A stretch of 64,000 bases of DNA, from the sequence record OZ346212.1; one strand, 5' to 3'. The notes under the pieces were generated by a model, which did not search any database, was not told the origin of the DNA, and worked only from the letters and a program-made list of their open reading frames with translations. The position numbers and the translations under genes were made by a program. How positions within the stretch are numbered: the first letter of the stretch is position 1; every line of letters starts with the position of its first letter. Shown here piece after piece: positions 11,984-22,152 of the stretch. This DNA is from a phage.

Positions 11984-12316
11984 ATGGTAACATTGGAAAG
12001 ACGTAAAGCTATTGCCGCCACACTGGCAGACATCTTTTGGGATTGTAATTTAAAATCTACCCGAAATTGTGGTGCATCTGTAGATGTATTATTCCCACGG
12101 CCTACTATTGTTGCAATGGGCAACCTGCTCGATGTGGTATATGGAGCATGGGACAAGGAAGGTGGATTCTATATCTGGCAACCTGACTACGGGACTTGGA
12201 AAGAGGTTAGTGGTTCTTCGGACTTCACTCCTGCAGTGGCTAAAATGGATGGCTGGAAAATCTATGTCGGTAACGACATGGAACTGAAAGGCGAAATTGT
12301 TTACTGGTTACCTTAA
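11984..12316 (+). CDS. hypothetical protein
   Basis: ORF track. Confidence 0.45.
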   Translation: MVTLERRKAIAATLADIFWDCNLKSTRNCGASVDVLFPRPTIVAMGNLLDVVYGAWDKEGGFYIWQPDYGTWKEVSGSSDFTPAVAKMDGWKIYVGNDMELKGEIVYWLP

Positions 12317-12337
12317 GAAAGTCCAGGAGATAAAGTT

Positions 12338-12583
12338 ATGAACAAAGGGTGGACATTTGTAGACGGCGTTAAAAACATGCCTCTAGGAAAGTATATTGTA
12401 GCCATGGCAGATGAGAATGGCAAGGTTGATTTCGGAGTTTGCGAGGTTGTTCTTGCAGGATCTGGTGACTATGCTCACAAAACTGGGATAATTAACGGTC
12501 ATTTCTACTTTGATTACAACCCTGTTGTGGCGTATATGGCTATGCCAGAGTTCGAGCTCCCAAAGGAAGGTGCAGATGTTTAA
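12338..12583 (+). CDS. hypothetical protein
   Basis: ORF track; RBS CAGGAGA. Confidence 0.45.
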   Translation: MNKGWTFVDGVKNMPLGKYIVAMADENGKVDFGVCEVVLAGSGDYAHKTGIINGHFYFDYNPVVAYMAMPEFELPKEGADV

Positions 12584-12773
12584 GCTTAAATCTGCATGGA
12601 ACATCGCTGTGGGGGACGAGATCCGTATCCCAGGTGGAAAGACCATTATGAAAATATCTCGTATCGAGTACGAAGGTGATCGTGTATTTCATATCTTTGC
12701 AGAAGATGGTCGAGAGATTTATATACAGGTAGGATCTCACATCTATATTCGTAAGAAAGGGGAGGACAAATGA
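12576..12773 (+). CDS. hypothetical protein
   Basis: Start moved to ATG 12576 after RBS AAGGAAGG. Confidence 0.4.
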   Translation: MFKLKSAWNIAVGDEIRIPGGKTIMKISRIEYEGDRVFHIFAEDGREIYIQVGSHIYIRKKGEDK

Positions 12774-13099
12774 CAGAGATCATCATTTCAACTGCAGGGT
12801 ATGTATTCCTGACAATCATTGCACTGGCTATTTTGGTGACAGTGTATGGGTTTGTTATCCTTCCTATCCTTGAGACATTTAGTTTGTGTCGGTGTTGGAG
12901 AAAAGCTTACGGTCCACAACCATGGAAGGACTGGCCCCACCTGGTGCGCTTAGCGTTCTCTTATGCTTACGATCACTCCAGTAGTGCATGCATAACCGGA
13001 TACCACGCCCACAACTGGAGCTGGGAAGGGTTGAGGAAATGGAATGTTACAAAGACCATACCTCTGCGCATGTACAAACCTAAAAACAAAGACAACTGA
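12770..13099 (+). CDS. membrane protein
   Basis: N-terminal hydrophobic helix; RBS GGGGAGGA. Confidence 0.45.
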   Translation: MTEIIISTAGYVFLTIIALAILVTVYGFVILPILETFSLCRCWRKAYGPQPWKDWPHLVRLAFSYAYDHSSSACITGYHAHNWSWEGLRKWNVTKTIPLRMYKPKNKDN

Positions 13100-13705
13100 T
13101 ACTTGAAAATTCCTGGCATATCAAGTATAAGGGGGATTTCTAAAATGGATTTCCTCCTTTTGATATTTCACCGGGCTGGATATTTTAAAATTCTTAGAAA
13201 ATCAGAAAATGGATCGAAAACTAAAATGGATTTTTCAGAGTAGGCGCGACAAGCTGAATAACTCATCCTATCGTTTGCACCATATTCCAGGCCACCATTA
13301 TAGATTTCCCACACATGCTAACCTCTCCCTACTAGAACTTCCTCCACTTACCCTTGACCTTCTATGGTAACAATCTAACCGCTATCTTGAAGTTGCGGTG
13401 CAGCTTTCCAGGTACTCGATCTACTTTTCATTTCAGGGCTTGGATTTTCTGAAAATTTTTCTCGATAAATTTCTCAGTACTCGATCTGTTTTTCGTTTTC
13501 TGAATCGGATTTTCTGGAAATCGTTCCGGCTCTCAACCTGAAATTTTTGGGGACGAAATCGATTTTTCGTTTTCAGAAATGGATTTTTAAAATTTCTATA
13601 TGGGAATATTTTAGTGGATACTGTTTTATAGGAAATTGTTACGGAGGGTAATTAGCATGCTAATTAAATTTATTAAATGCGAGGAGTTCTCATTTAGAAT
13701 TTTGA
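13100..13705. repeat. AT-rich non-coding region with reiterated TGGATTTT-type motifs and ~50-bp direct repeats
   Basis: No credible ORF; motif at ~13147, 13181, 13230, 13440, 13510, 13590; direct repeats at ~13407 and ~13475. Confidence 0.6.
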
Positions 13706-14280
13706 ATGATAATCATTCTCGTTTGCAGAATAACGGGCAGGCCCGGTGATTGTCTCCCGGCCCCTGTTGCCCCGGCTTGTTATTATAGTATCACACAGGA
13801 CAAAGAAAGCAAGGACTTTTTGCATAAATTTTTAAATGATAATGATAACCGTTCTCATTTTATGCAGCGCCCATCCCCGGTGGTTGTCTCCCCCGTCACC
13901 GGTGCCTGCCGTCCTTTCGATATGTATATTGTGCCACCTGGCGGGGCCGCTGTCAACACTTTTCAAAAAATTTTTCTAACCTGGTGCGCTAACCGTTGCA
14001 ACCTGGCGGGGCCAGCCTGGCAGGACCTAACTGACCAGGTAGGGGAGAATGAAGGCTTGTAAACCTGGTGGGCCTATGCTACAGGATAGGTAACAATTGA
14101 AGAGGAGGTACAAAAATGATATGATCCCCCTGGAAAATGTAGCTATTAATGACTCTGAGGCTATCGCCCTGGTTGAAAAGGCTATGGCGGGAGCGTTGGA
14201 ACATAAAGAAGAGTACGAAAATGGTGGTTAACCTGGCGGGGGCGGCAGGTGGATTCTATCATAAAAATAATTTAAAATAG
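13706..14280. repeat. GC-rich repeat family (AACCTGGCGGGGCC) and duplicated ~60-bp segments
   Basis: Motif at ~13936, 14000, 14229 (also 20056); segments 13700-13790 and 13830-13920 share TGATAAT...CCGGTG(A/G)TTGTCTCCC. Confidence 0.55.
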
Positions 14281-14283
14281 TAG

Positions 14284-14311
14284 TTGACAACAAGGTTAAT
14301 CATGGTATTAT
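14284..14311 (+). promoter_or_regulatory. sigma70-like promoter (TTGACA-N16-TATTAT)
   Basis: Read from sequence. Confidence 0.55.
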
Positions 14312-14361
14312 TACCCTACAAGGTGAACAACACCGCACTAACCAGTAAAGAGGATAAATTT

Positions 14362-14559
14362 ATGAACGCATACGGGATCAAAGTACGTCGCAACACTCGC
14401 CAGGTGGTCACCAATCAAGTGATTTGCCGGGTGGATGTAACCATCAACAACGGGCAAGGCCTTTATAAATTTCGTCGCGGTCATAGCTATACCCTGCAAC
14501 AGCTTAATCGTTGCGCCCTGACAAAAGGTCAGATCAACCACTGGTTTAATAAAAAATAA
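14362..14559 (+). CDS. hypothetical early protein
   Basis: ATG 14362 after RBS AAGAGGA. Confidence 0.5.
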   Translation: MNAYGIKVRRNTRQVVTNQVICRVDVTINNGQGLYKFRRGHSYTLQQLNRCALTKGQINHWFNKK

Positions 14560-14623
14560 GTATTGACATACAGTCAGACACCAAATACACTAAAAGCACA
14601 AAAGACACTAAGAGGATAAAATC

Positions 14624-14809
14624 ATGAAAACCACTACCTTTAATTTTGATAATGCAGACTTTTCTTTTTCTGATGTCAAGAACTGCCGCCGTGATCGTGG
14701 ATTTTACAAGGCTTATAATCTGGTGGGCCTGGACGATGACAATAATTTGCACGAAGTAGCTGAGATCCAGCTTGACAGATTGGACGGGAAAGTACTAAAA
14801 ACTTATTGA
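14624..14809 (+). CDS. hypothetical early protein
   Basis: RBS AAGAGGA; own promoter at 14563. Confidence 0.5.
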   Translation: MKTTTFNFDNADFSFSDVKNCRRDRGFYKAYNLVGLDDDNNLHEVAEIQLDRLDGKVLKTY

Positions 14810-14811
14810 GT

Positions 14812-14856
14812 TTATTTTTAGATGGCCTTGACACCAGGGCCATCAATAAAGTAAAC
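14812..14856 (+). repeat. conserved 45-bp promoter-associated element, copy 1
   Basis: TTATTTTTAGATGGCCTTGACACCAGGGCCATCAATAAAGTAAAC; TTGACA sits in the loop of the ATGGCC/GGCCAT inverted repeat. Confidence 0.6.
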
Positions 14857-14889
14857 TAACCACAGTTGAGCGGAAAAGGAGGCTTAAAG

Positions 14890-15012
14890 ATGAGCACTAC
14901 ACGCCAGCACACAAAGGTAACCATCATCGTTTGCATCATTGGGTACATCCTGGCGCAAATGTTGATGGGTAGCGCCAACGGTGTCGCAAAATTTTTCTTA
15001 AACTTTTAATTG
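14890..15012 (+). CDS. small hydrophobic peptide (40 aa)
   Basis: Not in ORF track (<60 aa); RBS AAAGGAGG; MSTTRQHTKVTIIVCIIGYILAQMLMGSANGVAKFFLTFN. Confidence 0.45.
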
Positions 15013-15036
15013 ACAAGCTAACTTAAATCGATATAA
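15009..15036 (+). promoter_or_regulatory. sigma70-like promoter (TTGACA-N16-TATAAT)
   Basis: Read from sequence. Confidence 0.6.
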
Positions 15037-15088
15037 TAAGCACATAAACGGGAAAACTTCCCAGAACACACAAAAGGAGAAAAACACC

Positions 15089-15430
15089 ATGACTACTATG
15101 ACCGCCTCAGAAAAAGCTATGCAGATCGCTGAACTGAAAAAACAGATCGCAGACCTTGAGAATAAGATCGATAACTTTGAAATCGACGAGGACAAGTACG
15201 ACGAAAACTATGATGAATGGTTAGACGAGATCTACGGCGAAATTATGATCGGAAACATTTCTTTTCTTCCGTCGCGTATCCTCAAGGAGCTAGATCCTAT
15301 CGCTTACCGCTGCGGATTTAGCGACTACATCGACAGCCTGGATATTGAGGACGATGAAGAATACCAGGAATTACAGACAGAGTTAGAAGAAGCAAAAGAA
15401 GAGCTTGCGGAGCTGGAAGAAAACGAGTAA
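15089..15430 (+). CDS. acidic coiled-coil protein
   Basis: RBS AAAGGAGA; E/D-rich. Confidence 0.55.
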   Translation: MTTMTASEKAMQIAELKKQIADLENKIDNFEIDEDKYDENYDEWLDEIYGEIMIGNISFLPSRILKELDPIAYRCGFSDYIDSLDIEDDEEYQELQTELEEAKEELAELEENE

Positions 15431-15432
15431 GC

Positions 15433-15477
15433 TTATTTTTAGATGGCCTTGACACCAGGGCCATCAATAAAGTAAAC
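15433..15477 (+). repeat. conserved 45-bp promoter-associated element, copy 2
   Basis: Identical to copy 1. Confidence 0.6.
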
Positions 15478-15519
15478 TTTATACTGTTAACACTGAACTA
15501 ATGCATAGGAGTTAAAACC

Positions 15520-15765
15520 ATGGCAGCACTAATCACCAAATATTATGCCCCTACCAACACCAAAAGCGCCCGTATCATGGTAAAAGGCTTCGGACGTAAA
15601 AAGGTGTACACCTGGGATTATGCCTTAGACACGGAAGACAACTACACCAACGCAATGACCGATTTTATTAATGAACTAAATAAGCAGATCTTGACAAGTT
15701 ATAAAGTGACCGATATTGCTTATATAGGTGAAGGCGGGATCTGTTTTGTAGGCATTGTGAAATAG
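15520..15765 (+). CDS. hypothetical early protein
   Basis: RBS TAGGAG. Confidence 0.5.
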   Translation: MAALITKYYAPTNTKSARIMVKGFGRKKVYTWDYALDTEDNYTNAMTDFINELNKQILTSYKVTDIAYIGEGGICFVGIVK

Positions 15766-15839
15766 TTATTTTTTCGGTGGTCCTGGTTGCAGGGCCATCT
15801 ATAAAGATAATTTATTAACACCATGAAAGGAGAAAGTAC

Positions 15840-16193
15840 ATGATCAGCGGGGCAAGTTTTATTATTGGCGCTATTGCTACGGCTTTAATTGTAAATAAGA
15901 TCCAGGATAAAAAGGAAAGAGGAAGTACCGCCCTTGCAGAATATCCATTTTGGGCATTCAACGATAACGAAGATTATATTATAAAGTATAAAAATAAAGA
16001 AGGTGACCAAGTAACACCGCGACCGATCCCGGCTTACAAAATGCAGGAAACACTATACCGCCTGGAGGCGGGTGGCGCAAAAATTGTAGACTTTTGGGGA
16101 TACGACCACACAGATCAGGAAGTTATAAAGCGCCGTATCCGGGCTATTCAGGCCAATATTGAAGTTAGCAAGGGGGGAATATATGAAAATTAA
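15840..16193 (+). CDS. membrane-anchored protein
   Basis: N-terminal TM helix; RBS AAAGGAGA. Confidence 0.5.
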   Translation: MISGASFIIGAIATALIVNKIQDKKERGSTALAEYPFWAFNDNEDYIIKYKNKEGDQVTPRPIPAYKMQETLYRLEAGGAKIVDFWGYDHTDQEVIKRRIRAIQANIEVSKGGIYEN

Positions 16194-16380
16194 TTTCGAG
16201 AAAATTGTAAAGCGCCCTCATGATTCCGAAGAGCTGCCAGAACGCCGCCAGCGTAACAATAAACTGAATAAGCCAAAAAGGTTTGGGAAGATCTGGCGTA
16301 ATCATTATGATCGTAAATTGCCCGGCCTACTTTTGGAACGTGAACGACAGGCAGAACGATACCGCCATAAAGACAAATAA
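16183..16380 (+). CDS. small basic protein
   Basis: Start moved to ATG 16183 after RBS AAGGGGGG; K/R-rich. Confidence 0.45.
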   Translation: MKINFEKIVKRPHDSEELPERRQRNNKLNKPKRFGKIWRNHYDRKLPGLLLERERQAERYRHKDK

Positions 16381-16388
16381 CAACCAAC

Positions 16389-16418
16389 GCCCCGCCATTG
16401 TGCGGGGCTTTTTATTTC
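16389..16418 (+). terminator. intrinsic terminator
   Basis: GCCCCGC-cattgt-GCGGGGC followed by TTTTTATTT. Confidence 0.75.
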
Positions 16419-16537
16419 TATCCTACGAATAGCGCCCCTGGTTGGCCCTGTAAGCGCCAAAAAGGCCCCCACCTATGCAATCGCCCCTTTAACCTGAAAA
16501 CATCGCCCAGGGCCGTTTCATGGCGTTAAAAATATCA

Positions 16538-16565
16538 TTGACATCGTCAACAGGTTAGCTATACT
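16538..16565 (+). promoter_or_regulatory. sigma70-like promoter (TTGACA-N16-TATACT)
   Basis: Read from sequence. Confidence 0.55.
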
Positions 16566-16597
16566 AACCACATCAAAGAGAGAAAGGAGTAAACGCC

Positions 16598-16858
16598 ATG
16601 CGTAAATTAAAAAATTTTGATAAAGTTGATGTTATCCTGAATAATTTTTACTACTGCAACAACAAGGCTATTTGGTGGCGTGATAGTTCCACCGATAAAG
16701 TCAGGGCGCGCTTTCTTCAGGGGCACTGGCAAGGCCGCCCAGTGATTAAAATCATGGGGCAATCGGTAGCGTTTAAAAATTGCCGCCGTGTTGATGACGT
16801 TGAGGAGATTTTAAACATTTTGCGCCACAATAATTTAAAAAATAGTGTTGACAAGTAA
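16598..16858 (+). CDS. hypothetical early protein
   Basis: RBS AAAGGAG. Confidence 0.5.
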   Translation: MRKLKNFDKVDVILNNFYYCNNKAIWWRDSSTDKVRARFLQGHWQGRPVIKIMGQSVAFKNCRRVDDVEEILNILRHNNLKNSVDK

Positions 16859-16875
16859 GCCTCAATAAGTATACT
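16848..16875 (+). promoter_or_regulatory. sigma70-like promoter (TTGACA-N16-TATACT)
   Basis: Read from sequence. Confidence 0.55.
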
Positions 16876-16932
16876 TAAACACACAGGCGGGAAAACTTCC
16901 CGCCACTAACAAAGAAAATAGGAGAAAATATC

Positions 16933-17556
16933 ATGACCACCGTTAACATTACCGCAGGTTACAATTTATCTTTCGACGTGCTGACCGACGAACAAAAAGA
17001 AAAAGCCGTTGAAATGGTCCGCGAAAGAGAAGAACACAGCGGGGATAACTTTTTTGCAGAAAGTGTAATTGAATACTATAAAGAATATGTTTTTCCAGAG
17101 TATGGCCTTGAAGATACCGAAGTACATTGGTCAGGCTTTTGGTGCCAGGGTGACGGCGCGTCAATCAGTGCTGAAAACGTGGATTTAGAAAAATTTTTAC
17201 GTAAAGTAAAGGCCCTGACCAAGTTCCGATCAATTCGTCACTTGTTCGGCACAATGCACGATGGCGAGTTATCAGCCAGTGTTGAACGCGACAAGTACAG
17301 CCATTACAGCCATGAAAACACTGTAAGCGGGTACATTGATACCACTTGGCTAGATCTGACCGCCAAACAAGAAAACAAAGTGGAAGACCTGGAAGAACTG
17401 ATCACCGAGACGGTACGGGAGCTATCCCGCAAGGTTTACGTAGACCTGGAGGAGGCCTATCTAGAACAGTTCACCGCAGAAAACCTGATCGGCCTTATCG
17501 AGGCCAATGATTGGCGGTTTGATGTCGATGAATATGGTGAGATGACTTTTTCATAA
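16933..17556 (+). CDS. hypothetical early protein (207 aa, acidic)
   Basis: RBS TAGGAGA; largest ORF of the early cluster. Confidence 0.6.
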   Translation: MTTVNITAGYNLSFDVLTDEQKEKAVEMVREREEHSGDNFFAESVIEYYKEYVFPEYGLEDTEVHWSGFWCQGDGASISAENVDLEKFLRKVKALTKFRSIRHLFGTMHDGELSASVERDKYSHYSHENTVSGYIDTTWLDLTAKQENKVEDLEELITETVRELSRKVYVDLEEAYLEQFTAENLIGLIEANDWRFDVDEYGEMTFS

Positions 17557-17564
17557 ATAAAGTG

Positions 17565-17592
17565 TTGCAATAACCTAAAAACCTGCTATATT
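17565..17592 (+). promoter_or_regulatory. sigma70-like promoter (TTGCAA-N16-TATATT)
   Basis: Read from sequence. Confidence 0.5.
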
Positions 17593-17646
17593 AAAACTCA
17601 AGGGGGCAAGACGTTTGCCCCAACACAAAACAAAGAGGATAACATC

Positions 17647-18027
17647 ATGAAAAACACTACCAAGGCTATTGACACCGTTATGTTTAACCTGGTTACATTC
17701 CGTGAAGATATGAAAGATCTTCCTCGTGAAACAGTGTGCGACCATATCGAAAACTATCGCAAACTAATCAAAGAGTTGCCTTTAAAACGTGATCAATATG
17801 CGGCTAACGCCATGCTTAATGCCATGATCAAAAAGATGATCCAGTGTGATTTAACCCTGGCCTATGATTATGCAGGCGGTCGTTTTGCAGTATACAATCA
17901 GCCCGTGCCCGGTATGAGCACCACCGAAGAATTGCACGCGCTCAATCTAAAACAAGACGTGTGGGATAGTATGCCTCGCGTGGTGGTATGGGTAGAAAGC
18001 GGAAAGATTTACGGCGATAATTTTTAA
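17647..18027 (+). CDS. hypothetical early protein
   Basis: RBS AAGAGGA. Confidence 0.55.
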   Translation: MKNTTKAIDTVMFNLVTFREDMKDLPRETVCDHIENYRKLIKELPLKRDQYAANAMLNAMIKKMIQCDLTLAYDYAGGRFAVYNQPVPGMSTTEELHALNLKQDVWDSMPRVVVWVESGKIYGDNF

Positions 18028-18037
18028 TCAGGTAGCA

Positions 18038-18063
18038 GGCGGCATATTTGCCGCCTTATTGTT
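18038..18063 (+). terminator. intrinsic terminator
   Basis: GGCGGCA-tattt-GCCGCC followed by TTATTGTT. Confidence 0.6.
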
Positions 18064-18091
18064 AATCAGAACTGTAAAAGAGGTACATAGA

Positions 18092-18463
18092 ATGGAATTT
18101 ATTATTTTGGCTGTATTGGTTGCCTTGTTTAACGCCTGGATCGCTGGCAAGATGGGAAGATCCGCCTTTTTATGGTTTATTATATCTATTTTCCTGGGGG
18201 TGGTTGCAACTATTGTATTGGTTATCCTTGCAATTGTTGACAAGGGGAATAATAGAAAGGGTAAAGTATTTTCAGACCTGTACGACGCTCAAACGTTTGT
18301 CAACGCCTATTATAGTGATCTTCCAGTCTCCCTACGTTGCAGCCTTGCACAACAGGTTTTCGATGAAGCTAAAACCAGAGATCACGCCCATGAGATTTGT
18401 TTAACTGAGGCGGATCGCCTATTTGAGAGGAATAGAAAATATGTGGACCAGCCGTTTAAATAA
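18092..18463 (+). CDS. membrane protein
   Basis: Start moved to ATG 18092 after RBS AAGAGG; two hydrophobic helices. Confidence 0.5.
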   Translation: MEFIILAVLVALFNAWIAGKMGRSAFLWFIISIFLGVVATIVLVILAIVDKGNNRKGKVFSDLYDAQTFVNAYYSDLPVSLRCSLAQQVFDEAKTRDHAHEICLTEADRLFERNRKYVDQPFK

Positions 18464-18682
18464 TGCCACGTTAATTAACCCCTTTAGTAAAGATTTGAAG
18501 CCAGCCGCCTGGCGGGATGGATTCAATAACGAACGCTTTATTTTCAGGCCTGATCTTGAGGAATTTTATAACAATGGATCGAACAACAGCGGAGATAATT
18601 TTTCTTGTGGTGTGTGTCGTGATAGGACTCCTGGGGGCCATTGTAGATCGCGTCACTACTACCAGAAGGAAAGGGGGAGACG

Positions 18683-18802
18683 ATGACAACCAAGGATAAG
18701 CCCCGCACCGATAAGGTGCGCCGTGTTATGGTATGGCTTGAGATCATCGCCCTTGAAATATTGTTAGGCGTAGGGATGTATTTTATCTCTGTAAGTAACT
18801 GA
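18683..18802 (+). CDS. small membrane peptide (39 aa)
   Basis: Not in ORF track; strong RBS AAGGGGGAGA; MTTKDKPRTDKVRRVMVWLEIIALEILLGVGMYFISVSN. Confidence 0.45.
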   Translation: MTTKDKPRTDKVRRVMVWLEIIALEILLGVGMYFISVSN

Positions 18803-18806
18803 TAAC

Positions 18807-18838
18807 GGCCCCCGATCCCTGGGGGGCCTAACTTTTTT
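18807..18838 (+). terminator. intrinsic terminator
   Basis: GGCCCCC...GGGGGGCC followed by TTTTTT. Confidence 0.7.
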
Positions 18839-18861
18839 CAAAAAATTTTTCTTCCGGGGTG

Positions 18862-18890
18862 TTGCAATCCGGTCCTGAATATGGATAATA
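18862..18890 (+). promoter_or_regulatory. sigma70-like promoter (TTGCAA-N17-ATAATA)
   Basis: Read from sequence. Confidence 0.5.
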
Positions 18891-18945
18891 ACAATCAACG
18901 GGGAAACATCCCCACCAACACAAAAACCAGAAAGGAGAAACAAAA

Positions 18946-19146
18946 ATGAGCAACAATATCCGCGTTATTAACTTCAAAAAAGAAGAAAAAATTGCCGTGC
19001 TGATTGACGGTCAAGAAATCTTCAAGGGCGACTATGAAGATCATCAAACGGCGATTAGTATCACTCGCGTGATTGGTTACCATAATTTTTACCCCCAAGG
19101 CGCTGAGGCGGCGGTTAAACGAATCAAAGAGATTGTAGGCCTGTAA
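18946..19146 (+). CDS. hypothetical early protein
   Basis: RBS AAAGGAGA. Confidence 0.5.
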   Translation: MSNNIRVINFKKEEKIAVLIDGQEIFKGDYEDHQTAISITRVIGYHNFYPQGAEAAVKRIKEIVGL

Positions 19147-19149
19147 AAT

Positions 19150-19194
19150 TTATTTTTAGATGGCCTTGACTCTAGGGCCATCAATAAAGTAAAT
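19150..19194 (+). repeat. conserved 45-bp promoter-associated element, copy 3
   Basis: Two substitutions relative to copies 1 and 2. Confidence 0.6.
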
Positions 19195-19233
19195 TTAAAC
19201 CCTGTTAAAATACCACGCAGTTAACAAGGAGTA

Positions 19234-19539
19234 ATGATCATGTTTATCCAGGCTAATAATCTTTATTTCTTTGATGGTCAGATCGTAGATGGTGTGGAAG
19301 TGGAGATCACTGGGTGCCCTGGTGGTCAGGCTATGACTTTTCGGAATAATGCCTTTGATGATTCTCATATCGTTATGAGAATGGAAGTTACAAAGCTGGA
19401 CGACAAGAAAACGCTCATTGACTATTCCGTGAAAGATCATCCAGACTACCACATGATCTATGGTGATTTGTGCATTGTTGACCGTGACAAGGTGGGCGGC
19501 ATTGTGATCGCTATTGTGAACGATGTTTTCTCTGTATAG
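19234..19539 (+). CDS. hypothetical early protein
   Basis: RBS CAAGGAG. Confidence 0.5.
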   Translation: MIMFIQANNLYFFDGQIVDGVEVEITGCPGGQAMTFRNNAFDDSHIVMRMEVTKLDDKKTLIDYSVKDHPDYHMIYGDLCIVDRDKVGGIVIAIVNDVFSV

Positions 19540-19600
19540 TTCCGGCAAATGATGCAAAATAAGGCCCCTAGCAGGGCCTACAGCGATATAATCACATAAA

Positions 19601-19630
19601 GGCCATGCAACCGCATGGCCTTTATTATTT
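19601..19630 (+). terminator. intrinsic terminator
   Basis: GGCCATGC-aacc-GCATGGCC followed by TTTATTATTT. Confidence 0.7.
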
Positions 19631-19678
19631 TGGCGTTACAGCGGCCCCAAGGCGCTTAAAAATTTTTTAAAGAAGTAC

Positions 19679-19706
19679 TTGCATCAAGCCCTACAATATG
19701 GATAAT
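19679..19706 (+). promoter_or_regulatory. sigma70-like promoter (TTGCAT-N16-GATAAT)
   Basis: Read from sequence. Confidence 0.5.
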
Positions 19707-19717
19707 AGGACGTGTCA

Positions 19718-19731
19718 GGGGGGGGGGGGGG
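19718..19731 (+). repeat. G14 homopolymeric tract in 5' leader
   Basis: 14 consecutive G between the -10 box and the RBS of gene 19771. Confidence 0.9.
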
Positions 19732-19770
19732 AGGCCCCAATCATTAACCGGATAGATAGGAGTTAAAACC

Positions 19771-20055
19771 ATGGCTATTGTTACCGCTGGCGATGTAGTA
19801 GAAATGGAAGCAAAATACTTAAAAGCGGGTATGCATATCCTACGCAACGATCTTGAACTGGTCCTGACAATGGTTGACTATAACCCAGGGCAAGATTATC
19901 CAAGTGTTGACTACTTTTTTGAGTATGTTGATGAAGAGTTGAAAGAGGATGAGGCCTATTGCGGTGAGTTCTGCAACTTCTTTTGTCCTGATGAGGTTGT
20001 AAAGGTTATCTATCAACCTGGCGTAGCTTTCCCGCTGCACGCTATCAATAAATAA
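19771..20055 (+). CDS. hypothetical early protein
   Basis: RBS TAGGAG. Confidence 0.5.
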   Translation: MAIVTAGDVVEMEAKYLKAGMHILRNDLELVLTMVDYNPGQDYPSVDYFFEYVDEELKEDEAYCGEFCNFFCPDEVVKVIYQPGVAFPLHAINK

Positions 20056-20117
20056 ACCTGGCGGGGCCGAAAAGGCCCCCGCCTGAAATTATGAAAAATA
20101 AAAAGAGGCAAACTATC

Positions 20118-20351
20118 ATGATGGAACAAATTAAACGCGCTGAGGCTATTAATGGCAATGTAATCTATTTTGTCAGCAAAAACGAAAAAGGCGTACCCTA
20201 TGCGGCGGTAATAGTACAGCCTGACGGCGATTATTGGTGCACTGTGTACGGCGCTTATTCTTTTGGGCGTCCAGTGCATGATAAAATTTTGAAAGTAGCG
20301 AACCCTACCGGGAAAAATATTACAGCAGAAAAATTTTTTGAAAAAAGTTGA
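20118..20351 (+). CDS. hypothetical early protein
   Basis: Start moved to ATG 20118 after RBS AAGAGG. Confidence 0.5.
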   Translation: MMEQIKRAEAINGNVIYFVSKNEKGVPYAAVIVQPDGDYWCTVYGAYSFGRPVHDKILKVANPTGKNITAEKFFEKS

Positions 20352-20375
20352 CATGACCATATAAAACTGTAGTAT
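20348..20375 (+). promoter_or_regulatory. sigma70-like promoter (TTGACA-N16-TAGTAT)
   Basis: Read from sequence. Confidence 0.5.
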
Positions 20376-20427
20376 ATAAATCAAAGGGGGCAACAAGCCC
20401 CACCAACCACAAAGAGGATAAAAAATC

Positions 20428-20607
20428 ATGGCTATTATTGCAAAGACCGAGATCGTAGGCTTAGATTCTATTCTCCTCGCATATGAGGAAGCTATAGAAA
20501 TGTATGTGGTTTCCTATGGTGAGTATATCCGTGAATATGAATCTATTGATCTAGCTTTTGAATGTTATATTCGCCAGGTTAATAAAGCGTACGATGATTA
20601 TCGTTAA
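20428..20607 (+). CDS. hypothetical early protein (59 aa)
   Basis: Not in ORF track; RBS AAGAGGA. Confidence 0.45.
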   Translation: MAIIAKTEIVGLDSILLAYEEAIEMYVVSYGEYIREYESIDLAFECYIRQVNKAYDDYR

Positions 20608-20698
20608 AATAGTTTGACAACAAACAACCATCTAACAAAGCATAATACATAAGGTGGTAGAATGATCCGCCACCCGGAACAAAGAAGAGGTAAACACC

Positions 20699-20944
20699 AT
20701 GAAAAGCAATAAAGGTTATAACGGTTACAAAAACAAAACTCATTGGAATGTAAGCCTTTGGATTAATAACGATGAGTCATTGTACCGGTTGGCCCAAGGA
20801 TTTATTAACGCTAATGCTAATCGTAATGATGCGGCGCGGGATATGATGCTTTTTCTGGAGCTAACCGGACAAGATAAGACCCCGGACGGCTTCAAGTACA
20901 GCACTACGGCGATCCGTGCCGCGATGGTTGGAATGAAACACTAA
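20699..20944 (+). CDS. hypothetical early protein
   Basis: RBS AGAAGAGG. Confidence 0.5.
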   Translation: MKSNKGYNGYKNKTHWNVSLWINNDESLYRLAQGFINANANRNDAARDMMLFLELTGQDKTPDGFKYSTTAIRAAMVGMKH

Positions 20945-21271
20945 AAGCACATAGCCGCCAGATCTCAGAATTTACGTACGCTCACCAGTCTATAGCCTGC
21001 TAAGTATTTATTCCAACCATAGAATAACGGAATAGTCAATACCTGCATAAAATAATTATTCGTGTAAACTGCATAACATAAATCGGCTAGGATGTCAACA
21101 TTTTTCGTAAACAGCTCGAAATTATAACGGTGAGTTATAATAAACAGAGAAATCTTTAGTCGTCTAATGTTTACTGTACATTACTATACTGACTGGAATC
21201 ATTAGATGACTAAGAGAAAGATAAGAAATCATTAACAATGCAATTGTTTTATTCGTAACAATAAGGCAACT

Positions 21272-21563
21272 ATGCAAACGGATGGCATGGCGCGACGGAG
21301 TCGCGACATAATATAAAAGCAGTAACCATCACCCCCGTGATAGTTTGTCTGCAAACTATTAATCAGATCATAGTTGCCTTGTATTTAGTTAATCATGACA
21401 TAACAAGCAAGGCAACTATAGATCTGCTAATAGTTGCCCTGCTTTTATATTATGTCATAGATTATTAGCCTGTTAATTGTTAGTCAGTCAAATCAACAAC
21501 GTTATCATTTCAGTCTTTATTGTTGTTGATCGTTATTGTTATCATGCAAACGAATGGCATGGC
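21272..21563. repeat. dyad-symmetry cluster bounded by 20-bp direct repeats
   Basis: ATGCAAACG(G/A)ATGGCATGGC at 21272 and 21544; between them AGGCAACTAT in both orientations, ATGACATAA/TTATGTCAT and CGCGAC/GTCGCG palindromes. Confidence 0.6.
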
Positions 21564-21936
21564 TTATCATTTTTGAGTAAACAATCTATACGTGAACAGT
21601 GAGGCAAGTTAGCAGCCGATAGATTAGATATTAACCTGCAGACTTCTGACCGTCTAGACGTCTAAACGCCCACACAACAAGGATTATACATACAATACTG
21701 AATGTAAACAGGGCCGCAAAAATGCTACCATACCACAGATTGTAAATTTTTCATGCAGCACTTGACAAAGAGGAGAACTTAATTTTATCAGGATAGGCAA
21801 GAATGTCAAGGCATGACTGCTCACTAAACAAGCAAACAGTCATGTGTGGGAGGTAAGTGATTGTGGTGGTAGGAAATTTAGTTGAAAGATGTGTTATAGG
21901 TGCTTCCAGCACTTTAGCCGGGCAGCTAATTGTGTG

Positions 21937-22152
21937 TCAGTCCAGCGGTTCATCCTCTACTTCACTGAAATCAATGTTCATGGTCTCTTCCCAACCATCG
22001 ATCTCAGCACAAGAGTGGAGTTCTTTAGGGTTTACTCCTAAAGCCTCAGCAACAGAGTCTATATTTAACACCTCTGGCAGGTATGATTCATCAAATTCAA
22101 GGTAAATCAGGCCACGAGTGTTGTCAGCTCCACCAAATATTTCTATCTTCAT
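21937..22152 (-). CDS. hypothetical acidic protein
   Basis: ORF track. Confidence 0.45.
   Translation of the reverse strand: MKIEIFGGADNTRGLIYLEFDESYLPEVLNIDSVAEALGVNPKELHSCAEIDGWEETMNIDFSEVEDEPLD

Follow-up and report, generated by a model that had tools for sequence, protein, structure and literature searches.

A repeated two-tier hairpin with nested promoter-like hexamers in an ORFan cluster of an rV5-like coliphage: a candidate PeSL-like element

Small early genes in the phage of sequence record OZ346212.1 are separated at several points by nearly the same stretch of about 50 bases, and the question is whether this element acts as DNA, as RNA, or as both. We analyzed 64,000 nucleotides of this record (the whole stretch is called the window here), which belong to an rV5-like coliphage of the genus Vequintavirus and, in this region, share 93-95% identity with over 110 GenBank records. 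The element has four copies, all on the + strand, and all within one 4.4-kb cluster of ORFans. A first-pass annotation of the same DNA had seen a conserved 45-bp element carrying a -35-like TTGACA and had offered three readings of it: it could be a promoter, either regulated or specific to the phage, it could be a binding site for a factor, or it could be an RNA element. The last of these is the best supported of the three, given the strand-specific G-U pairs, the compensatory changes, and a fourth copy that keeps the hairpin and lacks the -35 hexamer. We consider it somewhat better than an even bet (a probability of about 0.55) that the element is a cassette resembling the promoter-early stem-loops (PeSLs) of T4-type phages, one that combines an mRNA hairpin, likely an RNase III-type processing and 3'-end stabilization signal, with a moderate sigma-70 promoter in three of the four copies and with a role for the repeats as crossover points.

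The near-identical 45-mers that had been reported at positions 14812, 15433, and 19150 of the + strand are indeed present there; between copies 1 and 2 there is no difference, and copy 3 departs from them at 3 positions. A 24-nt core, GATGGCCTTGACWCYAGGGCCATC, is found at 14821, 15442, and 19159 on the same strand, giving 3 matches compared with 0 expected in shuffled sequences. The degenerate copy suspected near 15775 was likewise confirmed and is our copy 4, whose 45-mer lies at 15768-15812. Every copy begins 2-3 nt past a stop codon, and 28-45 nt separate its end from the next start codon (14890, 15520, 15840, and 19240, respectively). The earlier placement of the element 40-90 bp upstream of a small-gene start holds if the distance is counted from the start of the element. 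The four copies, with the limits of the hairpin described below, its predicted folding free energy (dG), and its score under a covariance model, are the following.

14809-14857, + strand: copy 1, a two-tier hairpin (dG -25.1 kcal/mol, z -7.7; 81.4 bits) with lower stem 14809-14818 / 14848-14857, upper stem 14821-14830 / 14835-14844, internal loop 14819-14820 plus 14845-14847, and terminal loop ACAC at 14831-14834; nested sigma-70-like hexamers TTGACA (14828-14833) and TAAACT (14852-14857), 10/12 matches, spacer 18.
15430-15478, + strand: copy 2, the same hairpin (dG -20.7 kcal/mol; 80.5 bits); hexamers TTGACA (15449-15454) and TAAACT (15473-15478), 10/12 matches.
15765-15811, + strand: copy 4, a conserved paralogue (dG -22.0 kcal/mol; 67.7 bits) in which the -35 hexamer is absent (CTGGTT).
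19147-19195, + strand: copy 3, the same hairpin with a G-U pair closing the loop (dG -21.2 kcal/mol; 78.9 bits); hexamers TTGACT (19166-19171) and TAAATT (19190-19195), 9/12 matches.

Folding of the + strand as RNA predicts a hairpin of two tiers, with dG values of -21 to -25 kcal/mol and z values of -5.3 to -7.7. The upper stem consists of 10 GC-rich base pairs (GAUGGCCUUG/CAGGGCCAUC) capped by a 4-nt loop; beneath it lies a 2x3 internal loop, followed by a lower stem of 10 A/U-rich base pairs in which a T-tract is paired with AAAGUAAAC(U) and which includes both this T-tract and the -10-like hexamer. The inverted repeat ATGGCC/GGCCAT of the first-pass annotation is therefore part of a longer one that continues outward through the internal loop into the A/U stem. 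The TTGACA that was placed in its loop lies there only in part, as its TTG pairs with CAG (U-G, U-A, and G-C) to complete the 10-bp stem and leave a 4-nt loop. In folds of 110-128 nt the hairpin is stable as an independent domain and leaves the downstream Shine-Dalgarno (SD) sequence and start codon untouched, which rules out sequestration of the ribosome-binding site. The opposite strand folds less well, with values of -16.8 compared with -25.1 kcal/mol for copy 1 and -8.1 compared with -22.0 kcal/mol for copy 4. Likewise, copy 1 scores 81.4 bits on the + strand and 41.5 bits on the - strand under the covariance model, a roughly twofold difference.

The covariance model was built on 37 distinct copies of the element taken from the window, 12 GenBank genomes, and 2 contigs of the IMG/VR database. 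Standard base pairs occupy 98.1% of the 740 pair-cells of this alignment, a share that falls to 34-55% if the 3' partners are shifted 1-3 columns out of register. Four pairs of the lower stem have changed on both sides (U-A/C-G; U-A/A-U/G-U/G-C; A-U/U-A; and G-C/A-U). The four variable pairs of the upper stem have changed on one side, always to G-U or U-G, and U-G pairs stand at columns 10-46 and 23-32. Since a G-U pair corresponds to a C-A mismatch on the opposite strand, the constraint must act on a single-stranded molecule with the sequence of the + strand. This comparative evidence indicates that the molecule is the mRNA of the rightward operons, and it is on this ground that we include a conserved mRNA hairpin in our reading of the element.

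Copy 4 separates the hairpin from the promoter-like hexamers. Its upper stem of 10 bp (GGUGGUCCUG/CAGGGCCAUC) contains two G-U pairs and is capped by a GUUG loop, and its lower stem has 9 bp. It was found in all 14 genomes and contigs examined, in each of which it has CTGGYW at the place where copies 1-3 have TTGACN. Substitutions in its lower stem are compensated and its upper stem stays at 10 bp, and its loops across genomes (GUUG, GCUG, GUAG, and GUAA) are unlike those of copies 1-3. The pattern of substitutions thus marks copy 4 as a conserved paralogue and not as a decayed copy. Because its hairpin is conserved without a -35 hexamer, the hairpin is the part common to all copies, to which three of the four add the putative promoter.

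Given a conserved hairpin in the mRNA, its dimensions can be compared with those of known processing signals. An ideal substrate for the RNase III of E. coli has about 22 bp with the target in the center, about 11 bp from the distal box, and an internal loop at the target leads to a single-strand cut that leaves a stabilizing 3' hairpin (PMC3867540). The helix makes two turns, is mostly regular, and places its distal end at least about 11 bp from the target. The element has a helix of about 22 bp, made up of the 10-bp upper stem, the 2x3 internal loop, and the 10-bp lower stem, and its internal loop starts at position 11 from the terminal loop on both strands; it thus has the length and the target distance of such a substrate. 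The R1.1[WC] product of 28 nt comprises 11 bp, a 4-nt loop, and a 2-nt overhang (PMC1540722), and from this length both cuts, U14^A15 and U42^A43, are predicted to lie at the internal loop. A permissive signal has the canonical UA/UG in its distal box and neither GC nor CG at positions 2 and 4 of its proximal box (pb2 and pb4). In the register that we infer, the pairs equivalent to the distal box are U-A/U-G in copies 1-3, as in R1.1 of phage T7, and U-A/C-G in copy 4. Those equivalent to the proximal box, in the corresponding register, are U-A, A-U, G-C, and A.A, with GC absent at pb2 and pb4 and with pb1 and pb3 non-canonical.

The five early RNase III signals of T7 (R0.3, R0.5, R1, R1.1, and R1.3) offer a close comparison in geometry. 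They too are a conserved family of hairpins, repeated between the genes of a polycistronic early message that host RNA polymerase transcribes. The five fold with upper stems of 9-13 bp and loops of 3-5 nt, and they share with the element an internal loop about 11 positions away from the terminal loop, beneath which comes an A/U-rich lower stem. R1.1 has U-A/U-G as the second and third pairs from the loop, as copies 1-3 do, and in both systems cutting one strand would leave behind a protective 3' hairpin (PMC3867540). The two families differ in that there is no sequence homology between them, cleavage of the element is predicted from geometry, and the promoters of T7 stand beside its hairpins, whereas the Vequintavirus element has sigma-70-like hexamers nested inside it. 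Taken as an analogy, the geometry of the hairpin points to RNase III rather than to termination.

A mechanism consistent with these features would run as follows. Early mRNA of the + strand, read through from strong upstream sigma-70 promoters, would form the two-tier hairpin of about 49 nt, and the hairpin would act on the mRNA, most probably, to judge from its geometry, as an RNase III-type processing and 3'-end-stabilizing signal. One cut at about U^A (14847^14848, 15468^15469, 15802^15803, and 19185^19186) would leave the upstream ORFan message with a 3' hairpin cap and free the downstream message. Attenuation of read-through would be an alternative role at the RNA level. The DNA of copies 1-3 presents, in order, a T-rich tract, TTGACN, an 18-bp spacer, and TAAAYT, and transcription may restart about 5-9 nt past the hairpin, as expected from the consensus; copy 4 would contribute a hairpin alone.

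The first-pass annotation had found no good -10 hexamer at 16-18 bp from the TTGACA. We find a -10-like hexamer at 18 bp in each of copies 1-3, as TTGACA-18-TAAACT at 14828-14857 and 15449-15478 (10/12) and as TTGACT-18-TAAATT at 19166-19195 (9/12). In a consensus scan these -10 hexamers have the key -11A and -7T, and a T-rich tract, TTTATTTTTA, precedes the promoter hexamers. By chance, a random 59-mer with this base composition would hold a match of at least 10/12 with a probability of about 0.02. Copies 1-3 hardly vary in TTGAC, and the three positions that follow it occur in all possible states; this pattern fits a -35 hexamer and a conserved stem with a free loop equally well and does not discriminate between them. 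It is thus plausible from the hexamers that copies 1-3 carry a moderate promoter of the ordinary sigma-70 type, and the promoter suggested by the first-pass annotation survives in this form, without its phage-specific class and without the premise of a missing -10.

A phage-specific promoter class would be expected to recur throughout the genome. The covariance model found zero further copies in the rest of the 64-kb window and zero in the 77 kb that remain of the near-identical phage JLBYU08, so that the element is confined to one cluster, an outcome that the first-pass annotation had itself named as speaking against its proposal. In a BLAST search with a 57-mer, matches were confined to Vequintavirus (121 records, about 3 places per genome), and similarity to T4-type phages was undetectable. 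Confinement to one cluster and one genus, with no extra copies in the window or in JLBYU08, rules out a genome-wide class of phage-specific promoters. Other searches agreed on this narrow distribution: 5,426 E. coli genomes contained zero copies, and a scan of IMG/VR anchored on the lower stem alone returned two known Vequintavirus contigs and unrelated AT-rich DNA that does not fold. Rfam returned no family at the elements (E<=1, positions 12000-22000). A search for the locus through the neighboring 81-amino-acid (aa) gene gave just 2 loci. By tblastn the neighboring proteins are accessory genes that also occur in unrelated phages, and they therefore offer no route to homologous intergenic DNA. 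The element sites are unannotated in the rV5 record and in the rV5 paper, including its table of promoters and terminators. A 'repeat_region' of phage isim that underlies one BLAST match is a separate feature inside a coding sequence. Among the records with the element are 17 GenBank entries (MG0656xx, 'UNVERIFIED: Campylobacter phage', listed host C. jejuni) that are 93-95% identical to Vequintavirus of E. coli; their host assignment may be wrong, or the sample mislabeled.

Another view of the element comes from the sister genus. Phage Av-05 (Avunavirus) has two analogous elements directly after stop codons (family D3), and this family is the top match of the covariance model at that locus, albeit a marginal one (17 bits, E about 0.4). 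On the + strand they fold into a hairpin with a 10-bp upper stem, a 1x1 mismatch at position 11, and a 12-bp lower stem, with dG values of -24.6 and -17.5 kcal/mol. Their sigma-70 matches are TTGTCT/TTGACT-16-TAGAAT with an extended -10 (TG-n-TAGAAT), and here the -10 lies within the hairpin loop and the -35 within the lower stem. The geometry common to Vequintavirus and Avunavirus is thus a 10-bp upper stem, a discontinuity at position 11, and a total of about 22 bp, with a different register of the hexamers. That Av-05 keeps the hairpin geometry and carries the promoter in another register argues that both features are real and superimposed and that neither is a by-product of the other. A stronger proposal, that the same 49 or so bases are dual-coded, as a sigma-70 promoter in DNA and as an RNase III-type hairpin in RNA, with the pairing of the two functions itself under selection, we regard as tentative and probably too strong. 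Also present in Av-05 (L017), at 17421-17625, are three tandem repeats of about 63-70 nt (CTCGGTTCTCGATCG...ATCGTATTTG..., family D1) in a non-coding gap beside a divergent promoter region.

Comparison of genomes bears on the remaining part of our reading, the role of the repeats as crossover points. The genes and intervals around the copies are the following.

14624-14809, + strand: open reading frame (ORF) upstream of copy 1; its stop codon TGA (14807-14809) adjoins copy 1, and the final A is the first base of the lower stem.
14812-15432, + strand: 621-bp cassette between copies 1 and 2, containing a 39-aa ORF (14890-15009), a consensus sigma-70 promoter (15010-15037), and a 113-aa ORF (15089-15430).
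15520-15765, + strand: 81-aa ORFan between copy 2 and copy 4.
18946-19146, + strand: 66-aa ORFan whose stop codon adjoins copy 3; the downstream gene starts at 19240.

In phages ime and ECP32 and in IMG/VR contig L002 there is one element in place of two, and exactly the segment 14812-15432 is absent. The surviving copy is chimeric: its left flank is that of copy 1, its right flank that of copy 2. These comparative data show, at the level of sequence, that the copies, which are direct repeats of at least 45 bp, serve as crossover points and that the ORFan cassette is lost when copies 1 and 2 recombine. Loop variants are shared by copies of one genome in 17 of 30 cases compared with 11.2 under permutation (P about 0.01), a figure that kinship of the genomes may inflate. 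Several indels are seen in the cluster among 13 genomes. One of them is an extra cassette of about 570 bp in contig L003 (IMGVR_UViG_3300010279_000001) at window position 16537, exactly between two TTGACA -35 hexamers, and indels here therefore also end at ordinary promoters. Others are a 125-bp insertion in contig L008 at window position 16836 and a 345-bp indel at 19551.

These properties resemble those of the PeSLs, which were described in the T4-type phages RB49/phi1, PST, and nt-1 (Arbiol et al. 2010, PMC2839356; Comeau et al. 2014, PMC4122927). A PeSL has a stop codon in an AT-rich tract, sigma-70 -35 and -10 hexamers, a stem-loop with G-T pairs that overlaps the -35 or the -10, an SD sequence, and an ATG (PMC2839356). 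PeSLs are repeated in ORFan-rich hyperplastic regions, where recombination between copies deletes one or more ORFans and leaves a chimeric PeSL (PMC2839356; PMC4122927). Five of seven listed features are found in the Vequintavirus element. Sigma-70 hexamers are present in copies 1-3, although copy 4 fails in this respect (CTGGTT); a hairpin with G-U pairs overlaps the -35 by its upper stem and loop and the -10 by its lower stem; a stop codon lies at the base of the stem, and an SD sequence and ATG follow 28-45 nt past the element; the four copies occupy a 4.4-kb stretch rich in ORFans and indels; and recombination removes the flanked ORFans and leaves a chimeric copy, as in ime, ECP32, and L002. 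The proteins flanking the copies have no known function in PHROGs or Pfam, except for a T7 gp1.1-like protein.

The element departs from the PeSLs in other respects. These have been described only in T4-like myoviruses, whereas the host phage here is a Vequintavirus, and they have a short polyG/polyC stem in place of a two-tier hairpin of about 22 bp that encloses the whole promoter. The Vequintavirus promoter has just 10/12 matches with an 18-bp spacer, and one copy is without a promoter. Promoter activity, terminator or attenuator activity, and mini-circle formation are demonstrated features of PeSLs and candidate ones of the Vequintavirus element. Since the host phage is not T4-like and the PeSL activities are only predicted here, we call the element PeSL-like, by which we mean a probable functional analogue of PeSLs and not a member by descent. 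Seen in this way, the element is real and conserved but fairly ordinary, and not exotic.

That the hairpin is instead an intrinsic terminator or attenuator, which limits read-through between ORFan cassettes, appears unlikely to us. Like a rho-independent terminator it is a GC-rich stem-loop right after a stop codon; copies 4 and 3 are annotated 'terminator' in phage Murica (GenBank KT001917), the stem-loop of PeSL211/210 cut lacZ expression like rrnB T1 (PMC2839356), and UUUAU, UUUAA, or UUUAUU follows the full hairpin in copies 2-4. However, rho-independent terminators have a U-tract adjoining the GC stem, and here AAUAAAG takes its place. At most 3 U follow the whole hairpin, and copy 1 continues with UAACC. 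With an intrinsic terminator defined as a GC-rich stem and then a U-tract of at least 5 U in about 8 nt, the absence of a U-tract speaks against one on both the + and the - strand. The base of the hairpin is rich in A-U and G-U pairs, which is unfavorable for intrinsic termination, and a terminator would not need a lower stem maintained by compensation. Moreover, a consensus scan that called canonical terminators at 16389, 18037, 18807, and 19596 called none of the four copies. Distinctly unlikely, in our estimation, is a plain internal sigma-70 promoter whose palindrome is a DNA operator for a dimeric regulator of the phage or the host. The hexamer matches (10/12 and 9/12, chance about 0.02) with their T-rich upstream tract suit such a promoter, as does TTGAC, nearly invariant in copies 1-3 with the next three positions free, yet copy 4 keeps its hairpin intact without a -35 in every genome and contig examined. 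Furthermore, substitutions preserve pairing and not sequence, with G-U pairs that are C-A mismatches on the other strand, and compensatory double changes fall in the very stem that holds the -10. The half-sites lie about 17 bp apart center to center and so not on one face of the helix, and each copy sits, in one cluster only, inside an operon with a consensus promoter. The spacing of the half-sites and the preservation of RNA pairing leave the factor-binding site of the first-pass annotation without support.

The repetition itself suggests a selfish or neutral repeat, MITE-like (after the miniature inverted-repeat transposable elements) or REP-like, with no regulatory role and with the hairpin as a reflection of how it spreads or as a by-product of recombination. 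The copies are palindromic, they bound an indel, and they show signs of gene conversion. The REP/BIME sequences of E. coli are repeated extragenic palindromes within operons that form mRNA hairpins able to stabilize the upstream cistron, and the element is like them a repeated intercistronic palindrome that would form mRNA hairpins. It is unlike them in that there is no sequence similarity and in that it has four phage-borne copies in one orientation with promoter-like hexamers. We consider this origin improbable, given just 4 copies, all in one orientation, exactly at stop codons and at a constant distance ahead of an SD sequence, no target-site duplications, and no copies in the E. coli genomes or other phages searched. 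Strand-specific compensatory evolution, in addition, implies selection at the RNA level. The conserved mRNA hairpin and its loop positions 1-2 (AC), nearly invariant in copies 1-3, would also suit an RNA operator for a sequence-specific RNA-binding protein, whether this protein represses translation or is a phage endoribonuclease distinct from RNase III. To this we give the lowest odds of all, since the loop is wholly different in copy 4 (GUUG, GCUG, GUAG, and GUAA) and in Av-05, the downstream SD sequence and start codon are neither overlapped nor sequestered, and no candidate binding protein was found. Also dismissed, by their anatomy, were anti-CRISPR repeat mimics, ToxI-like repeats, N4-type hairpin promoters, and single-stranded DNA promoters (Frpo), as the element is not tandem and is unlike the CRISPR repeats of E. 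coli, and as its hexamers are not reconstituted in the stem.

Several observations weigh against the PeSL-like cassette that we favor. The covariation comes from few independent events, chiefly the divergence of copy 4 from copies 1-3 together with changes in the copy 4 lineage, and the genomes compared are closely related (93-100% identical). The proximal box is a partial match to the R1.1 optimum (G-C, A-U, A-U, A-U/U-A), and copy 4 has C-G in place of U-G in its distal box. The promoter has an 18-bp spacer and a -10 of just 4/6, the -35 variants TTTACT, TTGATT, and TTGATA occur among the copies, and each operon is already driven by strong consensus promoters. In the literature searched there are no transcript data for any rV5-like phage. 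A Keio screen with the rV5-like phage LL12 yielded genes for lipopolysaccharide (LPS) only, and rnc was not among the hits (PMC7229145). RNase III is therefore non-essential for plating of LL12, and the screen neither supports nor excludes processing of messages from non-essential ORFans. RNase III is likewise non-essential for the plating of T7.

The remainder of the cluster has features of its own. Other intergenic gaps (15010-15065, 16538-16570, 16848-16905, 17565-17622, and 18862-18920) have near-consensus sigma-70 promoters, such as TTGACA-16-TATAAT at 15010. A short hairpin of a G-run and a C-run lies 10-20 nt after the promoters at 15010, 16848, 17565, and 18862 (ACGGGAAAACTTCCCAG, GGCGGGAAAACTTCCCGCC, GGGGCAAGACGTTTGCCCC, and CGGGGAAACATCCCCAC), and the same layout is seen in Av-05 (GACGGGGGATCGCTCCCCGTC, family D10). 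By analogy, this arrangement resembles the subclass of PeSLs with a polyG/polyC stem-loop after the -10, or it may be a 5'-end stabilizer. A GC-rich non-coding stretch of about 130 nt (16409-16537) with several CGCCC/GGCCC motifs fills the space from the terminator at 16389-16408 to the promoter at 16538; folding gave a non-significant result for it (z -1.3), and a repeat scan found no repeat family. The rV5 record places small ORFs at the equivalent stretch.

Three neighboring genes also deserve mention. In comparison with each of the other genomes, about 705 bp are missing from the window near 14767, within the ORF at 14624-14809, and the 61-aa product of this ORF is a fusion, in which residues 1-50 resemble the N-terminus of phrog_7028 and residues 17-61 the C-terminus of phrog_13245. 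The 65-aa protein encoded at 16183-16380 matches Pfam PF08200 ('Bacteriophage 1.1 protein') at 44 bits, where the cut-off is 21. T7 gene 1.1, whose place in T7 is immediately downstream of the R1.1 RNase III site, belongs to this family. The 207-aa protein encoded at 16933-17556 has homologues of 58-63% identity in jumbo coliphages of about 350 kb and more distant ones in jumbo phages of Klebsiella, Salmonella, Serratia, Cronobacter, Erwinia, and Caulobacter; some of these homologues are labeled 'YeeU-like antitoxin', and some lie within terminal repeats.

These results have consequences for the annotation and the biology of the rV5-like phages, which find wide use in phage therapy against E. 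coli and in typing collections. The rV5 record is blank at the element and that of Murica labels two copies 'terminator', so that a correction of annotation is called for, and the element accounts for a recurrent deletion polymorphism of 621-639 bp among Vequintavirus genomes. If the dual coding proposed above were true, the element would be a 'cut-and-restart' module, by which an ORFan cassette is severed from upstream read-through, is given its own start, and is functional wherever recombination moves it. If confirmed, the PeSL-like cassette would be a compact natural example of one sequence that is a promoter, an mRNA-processing hairpin, and a recombination site, and cassettes of the PeSL type would extend beyond the T4-like phages, where they have been proposed to drive the modular shuffling of ORFans.

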